Source: Cylindrospermum sp. NIES-4074 (lineage in GTDB: Bacteria > Cyanobacteriota > Cyanobacteriia > Cyanobacteriales > Nostocaceae). From it: 64,000 nt of DNA. Shown one piece after another: positions 9,450-56,867 of the stretch. Below the pieces are notes generated by a model that searched no databases, had not been told where the DNA came from, and worked only from the letters and a program-made list of their open reading frames with translations. The position numbers and the translations under genes were made by a program. Every line of letters starts with the position of its first letter. The stretch's first letter is position 1. Location of the stretch: assembly GCA_003994795.1 (NCBI GenBank), contig AP018269.1:1068725-1132724 (forward strand), written 5' to 3'.

Positions 9450-9800
9450 ATGAAACCATATTCCCTCGATTTTCGCCAAAAAATATTTGATACATACTTG
9501 GAAGATGGAATATCACAACGTCAATTAGCAAAAAGATTTTGTGTCAGTTTAAGTTTTATTCAGAAATTACTAAAGCAATATAGAGAAACAACAAGTATTG
9601 CTCCTAAAGTTAGGACAAAACAAACTCCTCCAAAGCTAAATAAAGAACAACTTAACATTCTCGAAGAAATACTTGAAGCTCAGAATGATGCTACTTTATC
9701 AGAAATTCGTTCAGCACTCAAAGAAAAAACAGGAATAACAATTGGTATCTCTACGGTAGACCGGATGTTACAGAGGATAGAAATAAGTCTAAAAAAAAAC
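9450..9800 (+). CDS. IS630 transposase OrfA (HTH DNA-binding part). The frame ends functionally at the A9 tract 9791..9799.
   Basis: 'MKPYSLDFRQKIFDTYLEDGISQRQLAKRF...' is the typical IS630 N-terminal HTH part. Confidence 0.8.
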
Positions 9801-9801
9801 A

Positions 9802-10404
9802 TTGCACGCCTCAGAAAAAGAAACAGAAAGAGTTCAATTATTAAGAGTACAATTCTGGCTTCAACTTCAGGGAATACCGGCGGAAAACCTTATATTTATT
9901 GACGAAGCGGGAGCTAATCTATCTTTAATAAGACACTCCGCTCGTTCTAAAAAAGGTAAAAGAGCGCATGGCTCACGACCTCAAAAACGTTGCAAAAATG
10001 TCTCCATCATTGGTGCGATTGCTCTTCAAGGAGTGATTAGTCAATATAGTATTTTAGGAGCAACTGATGGACTGACATTTGAGGCTTATATTTCTCAAAA
10101 ATTAGTTCCAAATCTGTGGAAAGGTGCTTATGTAATTATGGATAATTGTTCAATTCATAAAAGTGGAGAAATTGAGAAATTAATCGAAGCTGCTGGAGCT
10201 AAATTGATTTATTTACCACCATATTCTCCTGATTTTTCACCAATTGAGAATTGTTGGTCAAAAATTAAAAATATACTACGTTCTATCGGAGCTAGAAGTT
10301 ATCCGGACTTAGCAAAAGCAATTGAAACTGCTTTTAGTCAAGTCTCATTAAATGAGATTCATAATTGGTTTACCCATTCTTGCTACTGTACCTCACTAGA
10401 CTGA
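9802..10404 (+). CDS. IS630 transposase OrfB (DDE catalytic part). It is in the +1 frame relative to OrfA.
   Basis: 'FIDEAG...IMDNCSIHKS...YLPPYSPDFSPIENCWSKIK' is the DDE_3 signature. The frame opens immediately at the A9 tract and the stop lies inside the right inverted repeat. Confidence 0.8.
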   Translation: MHASEKETERVQLLRVQFWLQLQGIPAENLIFIDEAGANLSLIRHSARSKKGKRAHGSRPQKRCKNVSIIGAIALQGVISQYSILGATDGLTFEAYISQKLVPNLWKGAYVIMDNCSIHKSGEIEKLIEAAGAKLIYLPPYSPDFSPIENCWSKIKNILRSIGARSYPDLAKAIETAFSQVSLNEIHNWFTHSCYCTSLD

Positions 10405-45914: not shown

Positions 45915-47261
45915 ATGTATAGTACGATATCTTGGCGTTGGGTTGCTGGCTTTAGTATTGTTGCCCTATCACTCACCAGTTGTAACAACCCCAAAACAGG
46001 GAGAGACATTGGCAACCAAGCCACAGAAAGCGAAGTTTTAATCAACTACACCGACAAACCAGGACAAAGTGCAGAATTTCTTAAAACACCGGAAATACAA
46101 CAGCAGTCTACAACAGGTGCAAATTCCCAAGCCGGTGATGCAGTTGGGACATTCAAACGGGGTATGCCAATAAATGTTTATGCAGAGTCAGAAGCTGCCC
46201 AAAAGGCGGAAGACTTTTACAATCAGGGTAATAATTACGCTGTTCAGCAAAACTATCAGCAAGCGATCGCCATCAAACCTGACTTGCATCAAGCTTGGAA
46301 TAACCGAGGTTTTGCCCTTAGTAAGTTACAACCCTACTCCGATGCGATCAGGAGCATCCTACTTTGGCAAATATATCTTTTCTGTCTGATGGTGGAATTA
46401 GGTTCTTACGGCTTAATGAGATATGTGTCTTCCACAATGGGATGCTCCCATGCGATCGCTTTTTCATATGATGCGATCGCCATCAAACCTGACTTGCATC
46501 AAGCTTGGTATGGTAGAGGCTATGCCCTTGATAAGCTAAAACGCTACGAAGATGCAATTGCATCGTATGAAAAAGCGCTCGCCATCAAACCTGACGATGC
46601 TGAGGCTTGGAATAACCGAGGTGTTGCCCTTGGTAAATTACAACGCGACGAAGATGCGATCGCATCCTTTGATAAAGCGATCGCCATCAAACCTGACTAT
46701 GCTGAGGCTTGGTATAACCGAGGTTTTGCCTTTGGTAAGTTACAACGCTACTCCGAAGTGATCGCATCATATGAAAAAGGGCTCGCCATCAAACCTGACT
46801 ATGCTGATGCTTGGCATAACCGAGGTTTTGCCCTTGGTAAGTTACAACGCTACGAAGATGCGATCGCATCATATGAAAAAGCGATCGCCATCAAACCTGA
46901 CTATGCTGATGCTTGGCTATGCCGAGGTGTTACCCTTGGTAAGTTACAACGCTACGAAGATGCGATCACATCATACGACAAAGCGATCGCCATCAAACCT
47001 AACTATGCCTTAGCTTGGAATAACCGAGGTGTTGCCCTTGATAACTTACAACGCTACTCCGATGCGATCGCATCCTATGAAAAAGCGATCGCCATCAAAC
47101 CTGACAAATATGGAGCTTGGAATAACCGAGGTATTGCCCTTGGTGAGTTAAAACGCTATGAAGAAGCGCTCAAATCTTTTGATAAAGCAATTAGTATTAA
47201 CCCTAATTATCAATTAGCAATAAATAATCGCAAAGAGGTATTGAAACAACTAGGGCGTTAA
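45915..47261 (+). CDS. TPR-repeat protein carrying an in-frame 108-bp insertion (36 aa) that interrupts repeat 2
   Basis: Regular 34-aa TPR units ('AIAIKPDYAEAW(N/Y)NRGxALGKLQRY(E/S)DAIASYEK') except for 'RSILLWQIYLFCLMVELGSYGLMRYVSSTMGCSHAIAF', encoded by 46350..46457. Confidence 0.75.
   Translation: MYSTISWRWVAGFSIVALSLTSCNNPKTGRDIGNQATESEVLINYTDKPGQSAEFLKTPEIQQQSTTGANSQAGDAVGTFKRGMPINVYAESEAAQKAEDFYNQGNNYAVQQNYQQAIAIKPDLHQAWNNRGFALSKLQPYSDAIRSILLWQIYLFCLMVELGSYGLMRYVSSTMGCSHAIAFSYDAIAIKPDLHQAWYGRGYALDKLKRYEDAIASYEKALAIKPDDAEAWNNRGVALGKLQRDEDAIASFDKAIAIKPDYAEAWYNRGFAFGKLQRYSEVIASYEKGLAIKPDYADAWHNRGFALGKLQRYEDAIASYEKAIAIKPDYADAWLCRGVTLGKLQRYEDAITSYDKAIAIKPNYALAWNNRGVALDNLQRYSDAIASYEKAIAIKPDKYGAWNNRGIALGELKRYEEALKSFDKAISINPNYQLAINNRKEVLKQLGR
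46350..46449. mobile_element. 100-bp miniature inverted-repeat element inserted in the TPR gene (terminal inverted repeats GGAGCATCC, 8-bp target duplication ATGCGATC)
   Basis: Left end 'aggagcatcc' at 46350..46359 and right end 'gggatgctccc' at 46439..46449 are inverted repeats. 'atgcgatc' is present at 46342..46349 and 46450..46457. Confidence 0.6.
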
Positions 47262-47379: not shown

Positions 47380-48252
47380 ATGAAAAAGCTCTTAATCACT
47401 GGCGCTAGTGGTTTCTTAGGATGGCATCTTTGCCAACTAGCTAAACAAGAATGGGAAGTTTACGGCACATATTTCTCCCATCGTCAAGAAATTTCTGGCA
47501 TCAAAATGTTGAAAGTTAACTTAACAGACTTTCAAGAACTAAAAGATATATTTAATGATATTCAACCAGCAGCAGTTATTCACACAGCCGCACAATCTCA
47601 ACCTAATATTTGTCAAACCCATCCCCAAGAATCGCACCTAATTAATGTCACCGCATCTTGCAATATTGCTGGACTTTGTGCAGATAATGCAATTCCTTGC
47701 GCTTATACCTCAACCGACTTAGTTTTTGATGGTTTAAAAGCTCCTTATCGAGAAACAGATCCCGTAAACCCGATAAACATTTATGGTGAGCAAAAAGTCC
47801 AAGCAGAAACAGGAATGTTAGAGCGATATCCTCTCACCGCAGTTTGTCGAATGCCCTTAATGTTTGGTATGGCAACACCTACATCTAGAAGCTTCATTCA
47901 GCCATTAATAGAAACCTTAAAAGCAGGAAAAGAACTAAGTTTATTTATAGACGAATTCCGCACACCAGCAAATGTAACAACTGCCTCAAAAGGATTATTA
48001 TTAGCATTAGAAAAAGTTAACGGTTACATTCATTTAGGCGGAAAAGAACGGATTTCTCGTTATGAATTTGGGCGGTTATTAGCCGAAGTATTTCAACTTT
48101 CAGCAGATAAACTAACATCTTGCCGACAAGAAGATGTAAAAATGGCAGCACCCAGACCGGCAGATGTTTCCTTAGATAGTTCTCAAGCCTTTGCTTTAGG
48201 TTATCAACCTTTATCTATTAAAGCAGAATTAGAGACATTGATAAACATATAG
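47380..48252 (+). CDS. NAD(P)-dependent epimerase/dehydratase (RmlD/SDR-like)
   Basis: 'MKKLLITGASGFLGWHL' Rossmann motif and an internal Yxx(x)K. Confidence 0.75.
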   Translation: MKKLLITGASGFLGWHLCQLAKQEWEVYGTYFSHRQEISGIKMLKVNLTDFQELKDIFNDIQPAAVIHTAAQSQPNICQTHPQESHLINVTASCNIAGLCADNAIPCAYTSTDLVFDGLKAPYRETDPVNPINIYGEQKVQAETGMLERYPLTAVCRMPLMFGMATPTSRSFIQPLIETLKAGKELSLFIDEFRTPANVTTASKGLLLALEKVNGYIHLGGKERISRYEFGRLLAEVFQLSADKLTSCRQEDVKMAAPRPADVSLDSSQAFALGYQPLSIKAELETLINI

Positions 48253-48330: not shown

Positions 48331-48414
48331 GAAAAACATAATGATTTATAGCTATAGCCATCAAGATTAGGACGTAAACTATAAGAGTTCCCACATAGCA
48401 TCTACCCCATTTCA

Positions 48415-48753
48415 ATGGCTAAACCCTATAGTGATGATTTCCGGCAAAAGGTTATGCAAGCGATCGAATTGGACGGTCTCAAGAAGTGTGAGGCAAGCCT
48501 TCTGTTCAATATTAGTCGCAATACAATTAACTTGTGGTGTCAACGCAAAGCCGAAACGGGTGATGTCAAACCTAAACAGAGGAAAGCATCGCCGCAGAAG
48601 GGCAAAATTAGGGATTGGGAGAAGTTTCGCACATTTGTCAAAGCGCAAGGGGATAAAACCCAAAGTGAAATGGCACAGCTATGGGATGGACAGATTAGCC
48701 AACGCACAATTTCCAGGGCTTTGCAAAAGATAGGACATACTCGTAAAAAAAAA
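48415..48753 (+). CDS. IS630 transposase OrfA (copy 2), up to the A9 tract
   Basis: 'MAKPYSDDFRQKVMQAIELDG...' HTH part, homologous to the copy 1 OrfA. Confidence 0.75.
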
Positions 48754-48854
48754 CATACGGATATAGTCAACGAGATGAAGCCAAGCGGGCAGCATTCTTA
48801 ACGCAACTGGAGAACCCCAAAGCGCCGCACCTAGTATATGTTGATGAGTCTGGT

Positions 48855-49292
48855 ATGGATGAACGCGATAATTACGGTTACGGATACTCCCCTGTTGGAG
48901 AACGCTTTTACGACCTCAAATCAGGTTGTCGCAAGGGTCGCATCAATATGATTGCTGGCTATCGAGATGGACAACTAATTGCGCCATTTACGATTGAGGG
49001 GGCGTGTAACCGTACCGTGTTTGAAACCTGGTTAGAAACTTGCTTGATTCCGATGCTACGACCCGGTGAGTGGGTGATTGTCGATAATGCTACCTTTCAT
49101 CGTGGCGGTCGGATTGCTCAATTAATTGAAGAGGCAGGGTGTCAGTTAGTTTACCTACCGCCTTATTCACCTGATCTCAATCGCATTGAAAAGTGTTGGG
49201 CCACTTTGAAAAGTAGGGTTCGCAAGATTTTATCCACATCGGATAATTTACGTGATGCAATGGAAATCGTTCTCAAGCAAGCAGCGTCCTAA
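48855..49292 (+). CDS. IS630 transposase OrfB (copy 2). It is in the -1 frame relative to OrfA and likely begins at the A9 tract.
   Basis: 'VIVDNATFHRGG...YLPPYSPDLNRIEKCWATLK' DDE signature. The stop lies in the right inverted repeat. Confidence 0.75.
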   Translation: MDERDNYGYGYSPVGERFYDLKSGCRKGRINMIAGYRDGQLIAPFTIEGACNRTVFETWLETCLIPMLRPGEWVIVDNATFHRGGRIAQLIEEAGCQLVYLPPYSPDLNRIEKCWATLKSRVRKILSTSDNLRDAMEIVLKQAAS

Positions 49293-49365
49293 TTAATCTG
49301 GCTACGGCTATATCTTAGCCCCCCTTTTTAAGGGGGGTTGGGGGGATCTCATTTGTACTATATAA

Positions 49366-50154
49366 CTAACAACATTCAACATTTAAAAAATCAGCAATAA
49401 ACTTGCTATATTCATCTTTCATTGATAATTCCAAATCTCGCCGGATGCGTCGCCGTAAAGCAGGCACATTTTCACCAGTAAGAGGGTTAAATCCCAACTT
49501 CTCATACTCCTCCCAATATAGCCCTACGCCCCGTTTTTGCCAATTGGGAAGCTCATTAAAATTAATGCCATGCTGAAACAAAAACTCATTTTTATCAGCA
49601 ACAGATAACCCGTTCATCATATTAGTTGCTTCACCAACACTTTTACCATCTCGACGCAAACACCAATAACTGTGAGCATTCAAAGAGTTTCTGTGTGCAT
49701 CTTCATTTCGCCAACGGAAATAATTTACCACTTCCGTTTTATTAGGAAGTTGGGAGATGCGACAGTCAAAACAGCCAATATCGCCCAACAACAAAGAAAA
49801 TTTGGCACTAGCTTCACCTGCTAAAACAGAATTAAGCTTTCTTAATTTGCGTCCAAAAGAGTTTTCATCCTGAGCCAAAAGTAAAGAAATTTCATCACTT
49901 TGGGTATAACCATAAGTGACATTTAAACCACAATTCATTAGATGTTCAACTGTTGCCAGCATCAAATCTCGAAAGCGAATGTCGTAGGGAGCATCAAATT
50001 TATGGACTTCTTTTGTGAGGCGGGTAAAACTACGTCCATCTAATCTGGCAACCATGTAAATTCCAGGTAGCACACAATAATCATGGGCTGTTTCAAACAC
50101 CCGCATTCTGCTATCAAGTTCATCAAATTTCACGTTGCCATTCCTCAACAACAA
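49366..50154 (-). CDS. Thg1-like protein (tRNA-His guanylyltransferase family 3'->5' nucleotidyltransferase)
   Basis: 'MVARLDGRSFTRL' (Thg1 'VVRLDGRNFHRF'), 'GYTQSDEISLLL' ('AYGQSDEYSFVF'), 'YFRWRNEDAHRNSLNAHSYW' ('[20 protein letters not shown]'), and 'ADKNEFLFQHGINFNELPNWQKRG' ('[25 protein letters not shown]'). Length is correct for the family. Confidence 0.85.
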   Translation of the reverse strand: MLLRNGNVKFDELDSRMRVFETAHDYCVLPGIYMVARLDGRSFTRLTKEVHKFDAPYDIRFRDLMLATVEHLMNCGLNVTYGYTQSDEISLLLAQDENSFGRKLRKLNSVLAGEASAKFSLLLGDIGCFDCRISQLPNKTEVVNYFRWRNEDAHRNSLNAHSYWCLRRDGKSVGEATNMMNGLSVADKNEFLFQHGINFNELPNWQKRGVGLYWEEYEKLGFNPLTGENVPALRRRIRRDLELSMKDEYSKFIADFLNVECC

Positions 50155-50590
50155 AGGGTTTATTTAAATCGTTTTTAACAGAGTAAATTACATCAAACCC
50201 TTCTTCCCAACTTGGCAAAATCAAGTTTTTATAAGTTGCTAGAATTCCCTGTATAGGAACAACTTGTTTACCAGGTCTGCGTTGGTTGCGTTTTTTGCAA
50301 TCTTCTAATTTCACATCAAAATAATAACCAATAACTCGAAACCCGTTAGCTTTAGCCAGGGGAATATAGCGTTGTCTAGCTTCTAAAGTTGGGTTAGTGT
50401 TATCAATAACAAAACGCTGTTTAGCTTCTAAACAAGCTTGAAAAATAATTTTTTCTCGATGACGAGTTTTGAGCATATCCAAATTAATGCGGATATGGGA
50501 ATTAAAAAAGCAATGTTTAAAAAAAGTAGATTTACCCGCTCCTTGAATACCCATAAAAATGATTGCTTCCATAATGACAGCAACTTCCAC
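50123..50590 (-). CDS. P-loop polynucleotide 5'-hydroxyl kinase (AAA_33/PNKP-kinase-like)
   Basis: Walker A 'IIFMGIQGAGKST' and 'VIDNTNPTLEARQRYIPLAKANG', which matches the PNKP-kinase 'VIDNTNPD..RARY' box. Overlaps the downstream Thg1-like gene by 32 nt. Confidence 0.7.
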   Translation of the reverse strand: MEVAVIMEAIIFMGIQGAGKSTFFKHCFFNSHIRINLDMLKTRHREKIIFQACLEAKQRFVIDNTNPTLEARQRYIPLAKANGFRVIGYYFDVKLEDCKKRNQRRPGKQVVPIQGILATYKNLILPSWEEGFDVIYSVKNDLNKPFVVEEWQREI

Positions 50591-50896
50591 TTTAATAGCT
50601 CAGTATAGACCAATACAGTTCAGTTAAGCATTTCTTTCTTCTCTTCCTTTGCGTTCTTTGCGTCCTTTGCGGTTCGTTAAAAAAATTGATTTTGACAAAG
50701 AGTTAAGCCTTAACTGAACCGTATTGCAGTATCGACACCAACAACCTAGCTTACTTAACAGAGTAAACTCATAAATTATCTGTGTTCATCTGTGTTTATC
50801 TGTGGTTTAATTTTTCTAAAATTGCTTTTTGCAAAATGTCTATTATAGAGACGTTTTATGAAACGTCTCTACCTTCATTCAGCAGAAAAATTTCTA

Positions 50897-53800
50897 CTAT
50901 GAATAAGCTTCCATTGGCAGACAAGAACAAACGAAATTCCTGTCACCAAAAGCAGCATCAATTCTTCCCACATTCGGCCAAAATTTATGTTCTTTTGTCC
51001 AAGGTGCGGGGTAAGCAGCTTGTTCGCGAGAATAGGGATGATGCCATTCTCCGGTGATGAGACTTTCGGCAGTGTGGGGTGCGTTTTTCAACACATTGTC
51101 TTGAACATCCACCTTGCCTAATTCAATAGCGGCGATTTCTTGGCGAATGGCAATTAAAGCCTCACAAAAACGGTCTAATTCTTGTTTAGATTCGCTTTCT
51201 GTGGGTTCCACCATGATTGTACCGCCCACAGGCCAGGAGACAGTCGGGGCATGGAAACCGTAGTCCATGAGACGCTTGGCGACATCATCAATATCGATGT
51301 TGGCAGATTTTTTGAGCGATCGCAAATCTAAAATACACTCATGGGCAACTAAACCATTTTTCCCTTGATATAACACGGGATAATAAGCTTCCAGTTTCTT
51401 GGCGATGTAGTTGGCGTTGAGAATTGCCACTTTCGTTGCATCCGTCAAACCAGCAGCACCCATCATGGCAATATACATCCAAGAAATTACCAAAATGCTA
51501 GCACTACCCCAAGGCGCAGCAGCAACCGCCCCAATACCTTGTGTACCAGTTATCTTGACAACAGAATGTCCAGGGAGAAAGGGGACAAGATGGGAAGCAA
51601 CACCAATGGGCCCCATACCAGGGCCACCACCACCGTGAGGAATACAGAAAGTTTTGTGCAAGTTCAAATGACAGACATCTGCACCAATATCTCCAGGGCG
51701 ACAAATTCCCACTTGGGCATTCATATTCGCCCCATCCATGTAAACTTGTCCACCGTGACTATGAATAACAGCGCAGATTTCCTGAATTGATTCCTCAAAA
51801 ACGCCGTGAGTTGAAGGATATGTCACCATTAAAGCAGCCAGTTCACGACTGTGTTTTTCTGCTTTCGCCTTCAAGTCTGCCACATCAACGTTACCTTGAG
51901 AGTCACAAGCAACTGCAACTACCTTCATTCCGCACATCACCGCACTCGCTGGGTTGGTTCCGTGTGCAGACTGGGGAATTAAACAAACGTTGCGGTGTGC
52001 TTCCCCACGGCTTTCGTGATATTCACGAATCACCAAAAGTCCTGTATACTCGCCTTGAGAACCAGCATTTGGTTGTAGAGAAATTCCCGCAAACCCAGTA
52101 ATTTCTGCTAACCATGCCTCAAGTTGCTGAAACAGGATTTGATAACCCCGTGTTTGAGATAAAGGTGCAAAAGGATGAATATTGCCAAACTCTGCCCAAG
52201 TTACCGGCATCATCTCCGCTGTAGCGTTTAACTTCATTGTGCAAGATCCCAAAGGAATCATGGATGTAGTTAAAGATAAATCCTTAGTTTCTAACTTGTG
52301 CAGATAGCGCAATAACTCAGTTTCTGAATGATAGCGGTTGAAAATGGGGTGAGTTAAGTAACTGCTTTGGCGAGTTTGGGGGAGAGATGGGGATGAAAAA
52401 GTTACTTCTTCTAAAGTAAAAGGTAGATTATCAGTATTGGCGAAAATCTGCCAAAGGTCGATTAAATCTTCTGGTGTCGTGGTTTCATCCAGAGAAATAC
52501 CAATAGCACTAGTATCAAAAACGCGCAAGTTTATATTTCTGGCTGTGGCAGCTGCGAGAATAGTTTCTAAATTCTGGGTTCCCAATTCCACCCGCAGCGT
52601 ATCAAAGAAGAATTCAGAACTGATGCTATAACCCAGACGCTTCAACCCTGCTGCTAAAATTACAGTTAGCTGGTGGATATTTTCGGCGATCGCTTTTAAT
52701 CCATCTGGCCCATGATAAACAGCATACATACTGGCCATCACCGCCAGCAAGACTTGGGCTGTGCAAATATTACTAGTAGCTTTTTCTCGGCGGATATGTT
52801 GTTCACGGGTTTGTAAAGCCAGACGCAATGCAGGCTTGCCATTAACATCTTGAGAAACACCCACAATTCGCCCTGGAACCAGCCGTTTATACTCTTCTTT
52901 GGTGGCAAAGTATGCAGCATGAGGCCCCCCAAAGCCGAAGGGAATACCAAACCGCTGTGTGCTGCCTACGGCAATATCAGCCCCAAATTCGCCGGGGGGT
53001 GTGAGTAAAGTTAAGCTTAAAGGATCTGCCGCTATCGTCACCAATGCACCTTGAGCATGGGCTGTTTCGATAAAAGCGCGGTAGTCGTAAATTGTGCCAT
53101 CAGTGGCGGGATATTGGAGAATTGCCCCAAAAATCGGTTGTTGAAAGTCAAATGTTTGATGGTTGCCAACAATGAGGTTAATTCCCAAGGGTTGCGCCCT
53201 AGTTTGCAACACGTCGATGGTTTGGGGATGGCATTCCTCAGAGACAAAATAGCCGACAGCCTTATTTTTGCTGACACCATAACTGAGACTCATGGCTTCT
53301 GCTGCTGCTGTTGCTTCATCCAGTAAGGAAGCGTTGGCAATTTCCAAACCTGTCAAGTCAATAATCATGGTTTGGAAATTCAGCAGTGCTTCTAGTCTAC
53401 CTTGGGCAATTTCTGGTTGATAAGGAGTGTAAGCAGTATACCAACCGGGGTTTTCGAGGATATTCCGTTGAATTACTGGGGGAGTAATACAGTCGTAATA
53501 TCCAGTACCGATGAATGAACGGAAAACCTGATTTTTATCAGCGATTTGCTTTAACTTTGCCAGTGCAGCATACTCGCTTTGTGCTTCTGGTAACTGTAGC
53601 GCTTTGGTTAGCCGAATTGCCTGTGGCACTGTGGCATCAATGAGGGTATCAAGACTCTCAAACCCCAGTACATCAAGCATTTGCTGGATATCGTCAGAGT
53701 TTGGGCCTATGTGCCTTTGGGCAAAATTATTTAACTTTTGACTCTTATTATCTAGAATTTGGCGATCGCTAGACTGAGTACGAGGAACATAAATTACCAC
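50897..53800 (-). CDS. gcvP: glycine dehydrogenase (decarboxylating), glycine cleavage system P protein
   Basis: Full-length about 960 aa with both PLP-dependent halves ('[24 protein letters not shown]'). Confidence 0.95.
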
Positions 53801-53931: not shown

Positions 53932-54036
53932 GGGGAGAAATTCAAAATCACTCCCCACTCCCCACTCCTCACTCCTCACTCCTCACTCCTCACTCCTCAC
54001 TCCTCACTCCTCACTCAGCACTCAGCACTCAGCACT
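53932..54036. repeat. STRR heptamer tract (cactcct x~8, then cagcact x4)
   Basis: Directly visible. It generates the spurious ORF 53926..54282. Confidence 0.85.
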
Positions 54037-54161
54037 CAGCAACGCCAGTCCGACGCCACTTGCTTCAACGGGGGGAACCCCCGCAACGCAGTGGCTCCTC
54101 AAGTCGGGAAACCCGCCCACGCGGCTGGCTCCTCAGCACTCAGCACTTTAGCCGAAGCATC
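54037..54161 (-). repeat. GC-rich dispersed repeat (element B), copy 2, reverse orientation
   Basis: Reverse complement of 42776..42909 with 2-3 mismatches. Confidence 0.7.
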
Positions 54162-54176
54162 GAGCACTCCTTACTC

Positions 54177-54569
54177 CTACACCCCTTCTACTTGGGCACT
54201 ATACTCATCTGCTGTCAAGGTATCCTCAAAAACTTCGCCAGGGTCATTGACACGCACTTTTACAAACCACCCTTCGCGGTAGGGGTCATCAGTTATTTGT
54301 TCGGTATCGTCAATTAAGGGGTCATTGCGTTCTATTACCGTACCAGTCACTGGAGAATTTAGTTCTTCCACAGCTTTCACAGATTCAATTGTGCCAAACC
54401 TATCTCCCTTGGTAATAGCGTCACCAACATCTGGCAGTTCCAAAAACACAATATCACCCAATTGCTCAACGGCAAACTCAGTAATGCCAATGGTGGCAAT
54501 ATCGCCATCTATCCGCACATACTCATGAGAATCTAAATATCTCAAATCTTGAGGATATTCAAAAGACAT
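54177..54569 (-). CDS. gcvH: glycine cleavage system H protein (copy adjacent to gcvP)
   Basis: Lipoyl-lysine motif '[17 protein letters not shown]'. Full H-protein length. Confidence 0.9.
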
Positions 54570-54689
54570 AACACTTCACCTTACACATTAAAAAAATTTA
54601 GTGTCCCAAAATTAATCCCAGCCATATCTAGGAATGAACCTGGCTGGAGATTAAGTAACTCACAACACATTATTCCTCAAAACCGCTAT

Positions 54690-54842
54690 GGTGATCAGTT
54701 GTTAACACGATTTTTTGAGCGATAAAAGGGACGTTTCACCACAACTGCGGGGTAAGCTTTACCGCGAATTTCTACGAAAAGCGCCTTTCCCACGGTTGCA
54801 AACTCGGTGGGAACGTAGCCTAAAGCTATGGGATAACTGAGT
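54690..54842 (-). pseudogene. duplicated 3' fragment of gcvT (about 50 codons), with the duplicated gcvT-gcvH intergenic region
   Basis: 54590..54842 aligns at about 90% identity with 55625..55862 (gcvT C-terminal codons + spacer). There is no upstream gcvT body. Confidence 0.6.
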
Positions 54843-55210
54843 GTAGGGGACACGCCTCTCCATTGGTGTCAACTTAAGCTAGAAATCCTTTGTCCGTTGG
54901 TTTACACACCCGCCCACACCCGCCTGGAAATGAATTAGCCTACGGCAACGCTACGCGAACAAGGCTAATAGCCAAAGTCTACTGAAGTAGACTAAAGATT
55001 TTTCGGGATATTTAGTCATCTTGAGATGACTTTTGTTATTAGCAAGGAACTTCAGTTCCTTGCGGGACATGAGTTTTCCCTTAAGTTGATACCAATGCAC
55101 CTTCTCGTTCTCAGACTCCGACTGTACTCTGTATGGGAACGAGAAGGCGTAAAACACAGGGTTTACAAAGTTTTTCTCCTTAAGTTGACACGTATGAGCA
55201 TTGTTGTGCC

Positions 55211-55606
55211 CTAATCCTCACTGCCTTCAACCAGGGCGCTATACTCATCTGCTGTCAATGCATCTTCAATAGCTTCTAAATCATTGAGGCGCACCTTCAG
55301 AAACCACCCCGTACCGTAGGGATCATCTCCTGTATCTTCAGGATTATCAATCAAGGGTTGATTGCGTTCTATAACTGTACCGCTCACTGGTGAATAAAGT
55401 GTTTCCACAGCTTTCACTGATTCAATTGTGCCCAAACTATCCCCCCTGGCAACAGTGACACCAACTTCTAGCAGGTCTAAAAACACGATATCACCCATTT
55501 GATTAAGGGCATACTGCGTCACACCAATGGTGGCAATATCGTCCTCTATCCGCACATATTCATGAGAATCAAAGTAGCTCAAATCTTGAGGGTATTGCAA
55601 AGCCAT
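55211..55606 (-). CDS. gcvH: glycine cleavage system H protein, second copy (about 70% aa identity to the first)
   Basis: 'ESVKAVETLYSPVSGTV' lipoyl motif. Directly downstream of gcvT. Confidence 0.85.
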   Translation of the reverse strand: MALQYPQDLSYFDSHEYVRIEDDIATIGVTQYALNQMGDIVFLDLLEVGVTVARGDSLGTIESVKAVETLYSPVSGTVIERNQPLIDNPEDTGDDPYGTGWFLKVRLNDLEAIEDALTADEYSALVEGSED

Positions 55607-55712
55607 AACTATTCCCCTTACGAGTTAAAAAATGAGTTTACCTACCTGCCACATCTGGGAATGAACCAGCGTTGAGATTAAGTAACCCACAACACATTAT
55701 TCCTCAAAAACA

Positions 55713-56867
55713 TCAGCTGGCACGATTTTTTGAGCGATAAAAAGGACGTTTCACCACAACTGCGGGGTAAGCTTTCCCGCGAATTTCCACGAATAGCGCC
55801 TTTCCCACGGTTGCAAACTCGGCGGGAACGTAGCCTAAAGCTATGGGATAACTGAGTGTGGGCGATAAAGTCCCACTGCTAACTTCTCCAATAAATTCAC
55901 CTGCGGCTAAGATGGGGTAGCCGTGACGGGCTATATTTCGTCCTGGGGTTTGCAAACCTACCAAACGGCGTTTTACCCCAATTGCTTTTTGCTGTGCCAA
56001 AACTTCCCGCCCAATAAAATCATCTTTGGTATCTAGATGAACTAACCACCCTAAACCGGCTTCTAAGGGGGTGGTGGTGTCGTCGATATCTTGTCCATAA
56101 AGTGCCATTGCTGCTTCTAGACGCAGGGTATCTCTTGCACCAAGTCCGCAAGGGATGACACCAACATTATAGAGATGTTGCCATAATTCTATCCCTACCT
56201 CTGGGTCTACCATCACTTCAAATCCATCTTCCCCGGTGTAACCTGTACGGGCTAGGAAAGCGGGTTTACCCAATACTGTTGTTTCTAAATGTCCAAAGGC
56301 TTTAACGGGTGTTAAGTCTGCTGCTACCACTGACTGGAGATAGCTTGTGGCTTGGGGCCCTTGGACGGCAATTAAGGCTTTGGCTGGGGAAATGTCTTGG
56401 AATTGCACTTCATTAGTATCAAGATGTGGTAAAATCCATCCCTTGTCTTTAGCAGTGGTGGCAGCATTAACGATTATTACCGCCTTTTGAGTGCCAGTGG
56501 GGTCTGTACCTTGGTAATAAATGATGATGTCGTCAATAATTCCGGCTTGGGGATTTAATAATACGGTGTATTGGGCTTGACCAGGTTGCAAGCGACTCAA
56601 ATCTGAGGGAACTAAGGGCTGGAGTTGGGAAATCAGGTTTTTACCTTGGAGGGTAAATTTTCCCATGTGGGAAATATCGAACATCCCGGCTGTATTTCTC
56701 ACAGCGTGGTGTTCTTGGATGATGCCGCTATATTGCACCGGCATTTCCCAACCGCCAAAGCTGGTAAAGCGGGCTTTGAGTTCTACACCCAATTGATATA
56801 AAGGGGTTCGCGCCAGGGATTCAGTGATATGTTCTTGATTAGCCACAGGTATTTTATGCGATCGCAC
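55713..56867 (-). CDS. gcvT: aminomethyltransferase, glycine cleavage system T protein
   Basis: 'TPLYQLGVELKARFTSFGGWEMPVQY', 'GMFDISHMGKF', and a full-length T protein. Confidence 0.9.
   Translation of the reverse strand: MRSHKIPVANQEHITESLARTPLYQLGVELKARFTSFGGWEMPVQYSGIIQEHHAVRNTAGMFDISHMGKFTLQGKNLISQLQPLVPSDLSRLQPGQAQYTVLLNPQAGIIDDIIIYYQGTDPTGTQKAVIIVNAATTAKDKGWILPHLDTNEVQFQDISPAKALIAVQGPQATSYLQSVVAADLTPVKAFGHLETTVLGKPAFLARTGYTGEDGFEVMVDPEVGIELWQHLYNVGVIPCGLGARDTLRLEAAMALYGQDIDDTTTPLEAGLGWLVHLDTKDDFIGREVLAQQKAIGVKRRLVGLQTPGRNIARHGYPILAAGEFIGEVSSGTLSPTLSYPIALGYVPAEFATVGKALFVEIRGKAYPAVVVKRPFYRSKNRAS

Follow-up and report, generated by a model that had tools for sequence, protein, structure and literature searches.

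A 64,000-nucleotide stretch of DNA from Cylindrospermum sp. NIES-4074 (contig AP018269.1, positions 1,068,725 to 1,132,724; referred to here as the window) carries two overlapping minus-strand genes at 49366-50590, one for a small P-loop kinase and one for a Thg1-like protein (TLP). The pair is probably a two-enzyme cassette that repairs the 5' ends of RNA, most likely of tRNA. The pair was read correctly, but as a module it is already known rather than a new system. Anantharaman, Iyer & Aravind (2010; Biol Direct 5:43; PMC2904730) identified a PNK-family P-loop kinase as the most persistent association of bacterial Thg1, proposed from gene context that the kinase supplies the 5'-phosphate for Thg1, and mentioned links to RNA ligases. 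PNK-Thg1 operons in Myxococcus xanthus, Chitinophaga, Cardiobacterium, and others are given in their supplement. Because both the kinase-Thg1 operon and its mechanism were described in silico in 2010, the finding is sound but not new, and the first-pass annotation of this DNA, which was unable to tie the pair to a described system, has to be revised on that point.

The pair comprises the following features:

50123..50572, minus strand: kinase gene, 149 aa, with an ATG start at 50572; the longest open reading frame begins at GTG 50590.
49366..50133, minus strand: TLP gene, 255 aa, with a GTG start at 50133.
50123..50146, minus strand: gene junction, consisting of an 11-nt overlap and an upstream GAGGA within the kinase 3' end.

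Both minus-strand open reading frames reported in the first-pass annotation were present, and they do overlap as it had stated. However, the overlap is 11 nt when counted from the conserved starts, rather than the 32 nt given there, because the starts of the longest open reading frames had been used. The overlap, GTGAAATTTGA, occupies 50133-50123, and a Shine-Dalgarno-like GAGGA at 50146-50142 lies inside the 3' end of the kinase gene, ahead of the TLP start. The predicted kinase was 100% identical to NIES4074_09540 of Cylindrospermum sp. NIES-4074, which is annotated as a hypothetical protein, and a JGI metagenome contig (L081) encoded an identical kinase with the same gene calls (149 aa and 255 aa).

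Related loci were sampled by scanning one genome per species, which yielded 80 loci with TLPs that were 57-85% identical to the window TLP. The sources included Nostocales, Rivulariaceae, Planctomycetota, Acidobacteriota, Gammaproteobacteria, Bacteroidota, Bacillota, Nitrospinaceae, and others. The kinase gene was located directly upstream of the TLP gene, with the same overlap, in 69 of the 80 loci (39/45 cyanobacterial loci and 30/35 others). An overlap of the form RTGAARTTTGA (or its TTTAA form), preceded by GAGGA or AAGGA, was found across many phyla in nearly all of the 79 examinable loci; the TLP start in these loci was an ATG, GTG, or TTG equivalent to GTG 50133, and the kinase start was an ATG equivalent to that at 50572. 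The junction, with its overlap and GAGGA, is likely a signal for translational coupling. A scan for promoters and terminators around the pair gave a site count that was not above that of shuffled sequence.

The two activities are also encoded as single polypeptides. When the TLP was used as the query against 1.84 billion cluster representatives (50%-identity clusters), AAA_33-Thg1-Thg1C proteins of 397-418 aa, with a domain order that matched the gene order, were recovered from three independent clusters (P0132, P0211, and P0267). One 407-aa open reading frame with AAA_33, Thg1, and Thg1C domains was also present in a long-read Planctomycetaceae metagenome-assembled genome (L068, 5557-6780). 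This may be a true fusion or an artefact of an indel, and thus the case for fusion rests on the three independent clusters. Among genomes in which the pair stands alone, dN/dS was 0.09-0.10 for the TLP and 0.13-0.33 for the kinase, and both genes are under purifying selection in these genomes. The co-conservation of the pair on which the first-pass annotation had staked its proposal is therefore borne out by its linkage across many phyla and by the fused polypeptides.

As a separate observation, other TLP fusions were found in P0129, P0157, and P0196. In two independent clusters the TLP domain was C-terminally fused to a circularly permuted YpsA (SLOG) domain, and in one cluster the fusion partner was a Y-family (IMS) DNA polymerase, which may be a merged gene call.

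The TLP matched both Pfam domains of the family above the gathering thresholds: Thg1 (PF04446) at 5.6e-32, with 110.9 bits against a cut-off of 29.2, and Thg1C (PF14413) at 3.8e-14, with 53.4 bits against a cut-off of 26.3. Among solved structures it matched the Methanosarcina acetivorans TLP (MaTLP; 5AXK) at 2.1e-30, human Thg1 at 3.1e-21, and the Bacillus thuringiensis TLP (BtTLP; 4KGK) at 5.1e-20. The four motif blocks for which it had been called an unambiguous Thg1-like protein (RLDGR, SDE, WRNEDAHRN, and ADKNEFLF) were all present. A segment typical of eukaryote-type Thg1 is absent; the human 'chinnlyn' aligns with 'ahrnslna'. Judged by its sequence, the window protein belongs to the TLP clade and not to eukaryote-type Thg1, the tRNA-His G-1 enzyme.

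The catalytic Asp and Glu residues, the loss of which had been raised as a concern, were intact. Residues D32 and D79/E80 (255-aa numbering) align with D21 and D69/E70 of MaTLP, in which D21 and D69 are ligands of two Mg2+ ions (Kimura et al. 2016, PMC4820378). R146/N147 and R227 align with MaTLP R136/N137 and R215, with no gaps across the hairpin region. In MaTLP, R136/N137 read the RNA 5' end and the template, and the fully conserved hairpin residue R215 touches the tRNA elbow (PMC4820378). All of these residues were kept across 69 orthologues, with the carboxylates invariant. The window TLP was also 41% identical to the M. xanthus TLP MXAN_5968, which a 2019 review from the Jackman laboratory counts as one of the TLPs that have been studied biochemically. 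Characterised bacterial and archaeal TLPs prefer the templated repair of 5'-truncated tRNAs and require a 5'-phosphorylated or triphosphorylated end (PMC3061083, PMC6471195, PMC4820378). By analogy with these enzymes, the window TLP would be expected to add templated nucleotides in the 3'-5' direction to 5'-truncated tRNA.

The kinase matched Pfam AAA_33 at 2.3e-13. Its NCBIfam matches were the kinase part of TIGR01663 (PNK-3'Pase, 2.8e-13), TIGR04075 (bacterial Pnkp, 4.5e-07), and TIGR03574 (the tRNA kinase PSTK). The full-length NCBIfam scores were far under the equivalog cut-offs because those models cover multidomain proteins. The top sequence match in the PDB was the kinase domain of mouse PNKP (4e-12, 33% identity over 129 residues), and the Clostridium thermocellum Pnkp (CthPnkp) kinase (2e-4) and T4 PNK (4e-4) were also matched. 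An AlphaFold2 model of the kinase (mean pLDDT, 89.3) was compared with known structures by Foldseek, which placed mouse PNKP first (TM 0.84; rmsd, ∼1.9 Å; E 3e-12), followed by fungal stand-alone kinases and CthPnkp (TM ∼0.75). Gluconokinase (TM 0.62), PFKFB, and zeta toxin (TM ∼0.6) were clearly worse. The P-loop, GIQGAGKST, fits the pattern GxxxxGK[ST], and D32 aligns with the Asp of the PNKP 'NRD' motif. Residues G8, Q10, G13-K14-S15, D32, D57-T59-N60, and R66 were invariant or near-invariant among 63 orthologues. The P-loop and catalytic Asp are intact.

The PNKP-type 'VIDNTNP...RQRY' box recognised in the first-pass annotation is present, and profile, sequence, and fold searches all led to PNKP, bacterial Pnkp, T4 PNK, or PSTK. 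Gluconate and shikimate kinases, which the same annotation had considered as a possible non-nucleic-acid placement, matched worse than polynucleotide and RNA kinases. These comparisons, together with the structural model, suggest that the protein is a small, stand-alone polynucleotide 5'-kinase-like P-loop kinase, the substrate of which is presumed to be RNA.

The pair was frequently found among genes for RNA repair. The only families beyond the pair that recurred widely were Hen1 (Hen1_L and methyltransferase domains) and Pnkp (kinase, phosphatase, and ligase domains). The order hen1, kinase, TLP, zero to three genes, and then pnkp, all on one strand and often with gaps of only a few bases, was present in ∼30 loci. 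The pair was in line with both hen1 and pnkp in 25/45 cyanobacterial loci, many Nostocales included, and in 7/35 other loci. Outside the cyanobacteria its neighbours were RlaP nucleotidyltransferases, a PF09414 RNA ligase, an HD-plus-AAA_33 kinase, and RtcB. One locus (L062) had the order RtcB-TLP-Hen1-Pnkp, and on a Deinococcus megaplasmid the kinase and TLP genes were followed by two small genes and then Hen1-RlaP-RlaP. The small kinase was retained even beside a Pnkp with its own kinase domain, which suggests that the two kinases differ in specificity or that the small one physically associates with the TLP.

In Trichormus variabilis, hen1 and pnkp adjoin each other, 59 bp apart, without the pair, and therefore the modules are separable in both directions. 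Three states exist in the Nostocales (hen1-pnkp; hen1-kinase-TLP-pnkp; and kinase-TLP alone), and thus the pair behaves like a separable module that is accessory to RNA repair systems. A comparison of these three states could reveal what the pair repairs.

Other gene arrangements were seen near the pair. In one non-cyanobacterial locus (L044, 6853-8601), genes for an AAA_15/AAA_21 ATPase and a DUF3226 protein were located between the TLP gene and pnkp; these resemble an ATPase-nuclease, abortive-infection-like pair, possibly a defence pair inside an RNA repair operon. In a Calothrix group (L013, L015, L019, L022, and L024), a conserved protein of ∼300 aa with no Pfam match was encoded upstream of the pair, and a protein of ∼1800 aa, the N terminus of which appeared by eye to be Ser/Thr kinase-like and AAA_16-like, was encoded downstream. 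Neither hen1 nor pnkp was present in these five loci.

The first-pass annotation had proposed that the pair is an RNA 5'-end healing cassette, and this predicted function is supported by family membership, intact catalytic residues, gene linkage, fusions, the RNA-repair context, and purifying selection. In the proposed scheme, a transesterifying endoribonuclease (ribotoxin), or similar damage, would strip the 5' strand of a helix (a tRNA acceptor stem, for example) of nucleotides and leave a recessed 5'-OH that faces the 3' template strand. The 149-aa kinase would phosphorylate this 5'-OH. The TLP would then activate the 5'-phosphate with ATP or GTP and extend the strand with Watson-Crick-templated nucleotides, working 3'-to-5', until the stem had regained its full length, with its elbow-touching hairpin setting the stopping point at the full acceptor stem. 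The two genes are presumably translationally coupled, and their products probably form a complex. The cassette may stand alone, as in the window, or plug into heal-and-seal operons (Hen1/Pnkp, RNA ligase/RlaP, or RtcB), in which it would refill lost 5' nucleotides. Such two-step repair of 5' ends agrees with the known behaviour of MaTLP (PMC4820378) and BtTLP.

Several points weigh against this proposal. Some loci of the TLP clade (L025, L032, L045, L063, and L070) lack the kinase. RNA specificity of the kinase is assumed, because its closest structural relative, mammalian PNKP, acts on DNA ends. In the searchable literature, neither biochemical nor genetic tests of the kinase or the pair were found, and the 2010 kinase partnership appears never to have been addressed experimentally. 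The 2019 Jackman-lab review includes neither the kinase nor the operon and calls the physiological substrates of bacterial TLPs unknown. These loci are not linked to any toxin known to produce truncated acceptor stems with a 5'-OH.

The arrangements with hen1 and pnkp raise an alternative, in which the pair is a mere gap-filling accessory for ligase-based break repair (Pnkp/Hen1 or RNA ligase/RlaP) and the window copy is a relic of the loss or separation of hen1 and pnkp. Consistent with this explanation are the numerous loci in which the pair is in line with both genes and the three loci (L001, L004, and L006) in which an intact pair is flanked by hen1 or pnkp fragments. Furthermore, no Cylindrospermum Hen1 was found among the 120 best Hen1 homologues, an indirect check that provides weak evidence that the genus is without Hen1. 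However, more than half of the loci had no repair gene within the 6-kb flanks of the pair, and stand-alone pairs show purifying selection (dN/dS ∼0.09 for the TLP and 0.13-0.33 for the kinase). The Trichormus variabilis locus, with hen1-pnkp in the absence of the pair, is a further point against dependence of one module on the other. The window itself had no remnant of hen1 or pnkp: a tblastn search of its 64 kb with Nostoc Hen1 and Pnkp gave only weak kinase-domain similarity, and blastn of the intergenic DNA at word size 7 returned only short cyanobacterial repeat matches. Thus, it seems rather unlikely that the pair is merely an accessory to ligation.

It is also conceivable that the TLP serves to maintain tRNA-His, by re-adding G-1 opposite C73, or functions in general tRNA quality control, in which case linkage to the kinase would be mechanistically meaningless. 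Bacterial and archaeal TLPs are able to add G-1 to tRNA-His in vitro (2019 Jackman-lab review), and MaTLP also binds tRNA-His in a second mode, which depends on the anticodon (PMC4820378). However, the products of RNase P are already 5'-phosphorylated, and therefore a dedicated 5'-kinase would be unnecessary for tRNA-His maintenance. In addition, G-1 is genome encoded in most bacteria (2019 Jackman-lab review), and damage repair is the role indicated by the close gene overlap, the fused proteins, and the RNA-repair genes nearby. This role is considered improbable.

Anantharaman et al. (2010; PMC2904730) raised the alternative that the TLP is mainly a 5'-adenylyltransferase, so that App-RNA made from the kinase product primes ligation and no polymerisation takes place. 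RNA ligases are frequent among the neighbours, as this would require, but most loci have no ligase nearby. All TLPs characterised to date carry out templated nucleotide addition, and the window TLP has kept its binding residues for the template and the incoming nucleotide. An adenylyltransferase function is considered very improbable. There is almost no likelihood that the kinase is a small-molecule or zeta-toxin-like enzyme and the pair a toxin-antitoxin or anti-phage defence system. Weak Pfam Zeta_toxin matches favour this, but they were below threshold: that of the window kinase had E 0.0094, and that of the N terminus of one fusion protein had E 3.2e-08. PNK families and structures scored far better (Foldseek TM 0.84 for PNKP versus ∼0.62 for zeta toxin or gluconokinase), the neighbours were repair enzymes rather than defence genes, and a search for known anti-phage systems with PADLOC gave no match for the kinase or the TLP at E <= 0.01.

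A more specific form of the repair cassette is possible, and is offered tentatively. The pair may be a pathway sufficient in itself, in which the two proteins form a complex and rebuild tRNA acceptor stems after transesterifying toxins have cut the 5' strand. The small kinase would be specialised for recessed 5'-OH ends, as PNKP is, and hence would be kept beside Pnkp, and the cassette would be an optional plug-in to Pnkp/Hen1. If this is true, it would be the first physiological role for bacterial TLPs, the substrates of which are still unsettled according to the 2019 Jackman-lab review, and it would imply that a class of acceptor-stem-directed ribotoxins takes part in cyanobacterial conflicts.

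The window pair shares with the PNK-Thg1 operon of 2010 a kinase gene directly upstream of the Thg1 gene, the kinase-then-Thg1 logic, and occasional RNA ligase links. The hen1-kinase-TLP-pnkp arrangement, the kinase-TLP fusions, and the conserved 11-nt overlap emerged from the present analysis. A word search of PMC2904730 for Hen1 and Nostocales found no occurrence of either; a 2016 survey by Burroughs & Aravind may cover the hen1-kinase-TLP-pnkp arrangement. The MACRO-domain partner of the 2010 paper was found in none of the 80 loci.

With the characterised TLPs (MaTLP, BtTLP, and the M. xanthus enzyme, MxTLP), the window TLP has in common the domains, catalytic carboxylates, R/N pair, and elbow-binding hairpin Arg; however, it is only ∼30% identical to the BtTLP-like clade carried by Bacillus plasmids and phages. 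The kinase shares the P-loop kinase fold, GxxGxGKS/T loop, catalytic Asp, and DNTN...R motif of the mammalian PNKP, CthPnkp, and T4 PNK kinases. Unlike PNKP and Pnkp, it is a stand-alone domain of 149 aa with no phosphatase, FHA, or ligase module, and it is only ∼25% identical to the kinase domain of the Nostoc Pnkp from related operons.

RNA end-healing is a function that the pair would share with bacterial Pnkp/Hen1, between the genes of which it lies on the same strand in ∼30 related loci. A break is healed, methylated, and sealed by Pnkp/Hen1; the pair, in contrast, would synthesise anew the 5' nucleotides that had been lost, and the window has neither hen1 nor pnkp. There is also a likeness to T4 PNK and RNA ligase, the phage counter to PrrC, in that a polynucleotide kinase and a nucleotidyl-transferring enzyme restore damaged tRNA (in part after a preprint on RlaP). 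In the T4 system a nick in the anticodon loop is resealed by ligation, whereas the second enzyme of the pair is a predicted templated 3'-5' polymerase with no phage context.

The pair is located, as had been reported, between gcvP, which is upstream (50897-53800), and an NAD-dependent epimerase-like gene, which is downstream (47380-48252) and convergent with the TLP gene. An insertion sequence lies between the TLP and epimerase-like genes:

48347..49312, plus strand: IS630-family insertion sequence, 966 bp, with terminal inverted repeats of ∼29 nt and TA flanks; context only.

Its transposase is split into two open reading frames (48415-48801 and 48855-49292), and its end is 53 nt from the TLP stop codon. 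Another IS630-family transposase region near 9453-10347 was only 31-36% identical in protein sequence to that at 48415-49292, and the window's two IS630 'copies' are different IS630-family elements. The first-pass annotation described the pair as an IS630-adjacent islet. In a relative (L007), only 96 bp, without an insertion sequence, separate the TLP gene from an orthologous convergent epimerase gene (71% identical), and therefore the IS630 element is a later intergenic insertion. Since, in addition, no second identical copy flanks the pair, IS630 was rejected as its carrier. A phage or plasmid origin was also rejected; phage TLPs were at most 36% identical, and the plasmid matches of the clade were on megaplasmids, again in RNA-repair contexts.

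The upstream neighbour of the pair varies: gcvP in the window, MazG in L007, and DUF928 in C. stagnale. An ancestral empty site was not definable. The only tRNA gene in the window encodes tRNA-Ala.

Upstream of the pair, a region of ∼667 bp that spans gcvH and the 3' end of gcvT is duplicated with 80% identity (54184-54850 versus 55224-55865). The duplication yields a second gcvH (54177-54569) and a 52-aa C-terminal fragment of gcvT (54695-54853), both of which lie between gcvP and the intact gcvH-gcvT genes. Heptamer tandem repeats are located between gcvP and gcvH (53950-54040; CACTCCT ∼8 times and CACTCAG 4 times), and CTTTGCG-type repeats are located upstream of the kinase gene (50645-50675); these look like typical cyanobacterial STRR-like sequences. 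In a TPR-repeat open reading frame at 45915-47261, ∼40 residues (around 155-195) interrupt the TPR pattern and may represent a small in-frame insertion.

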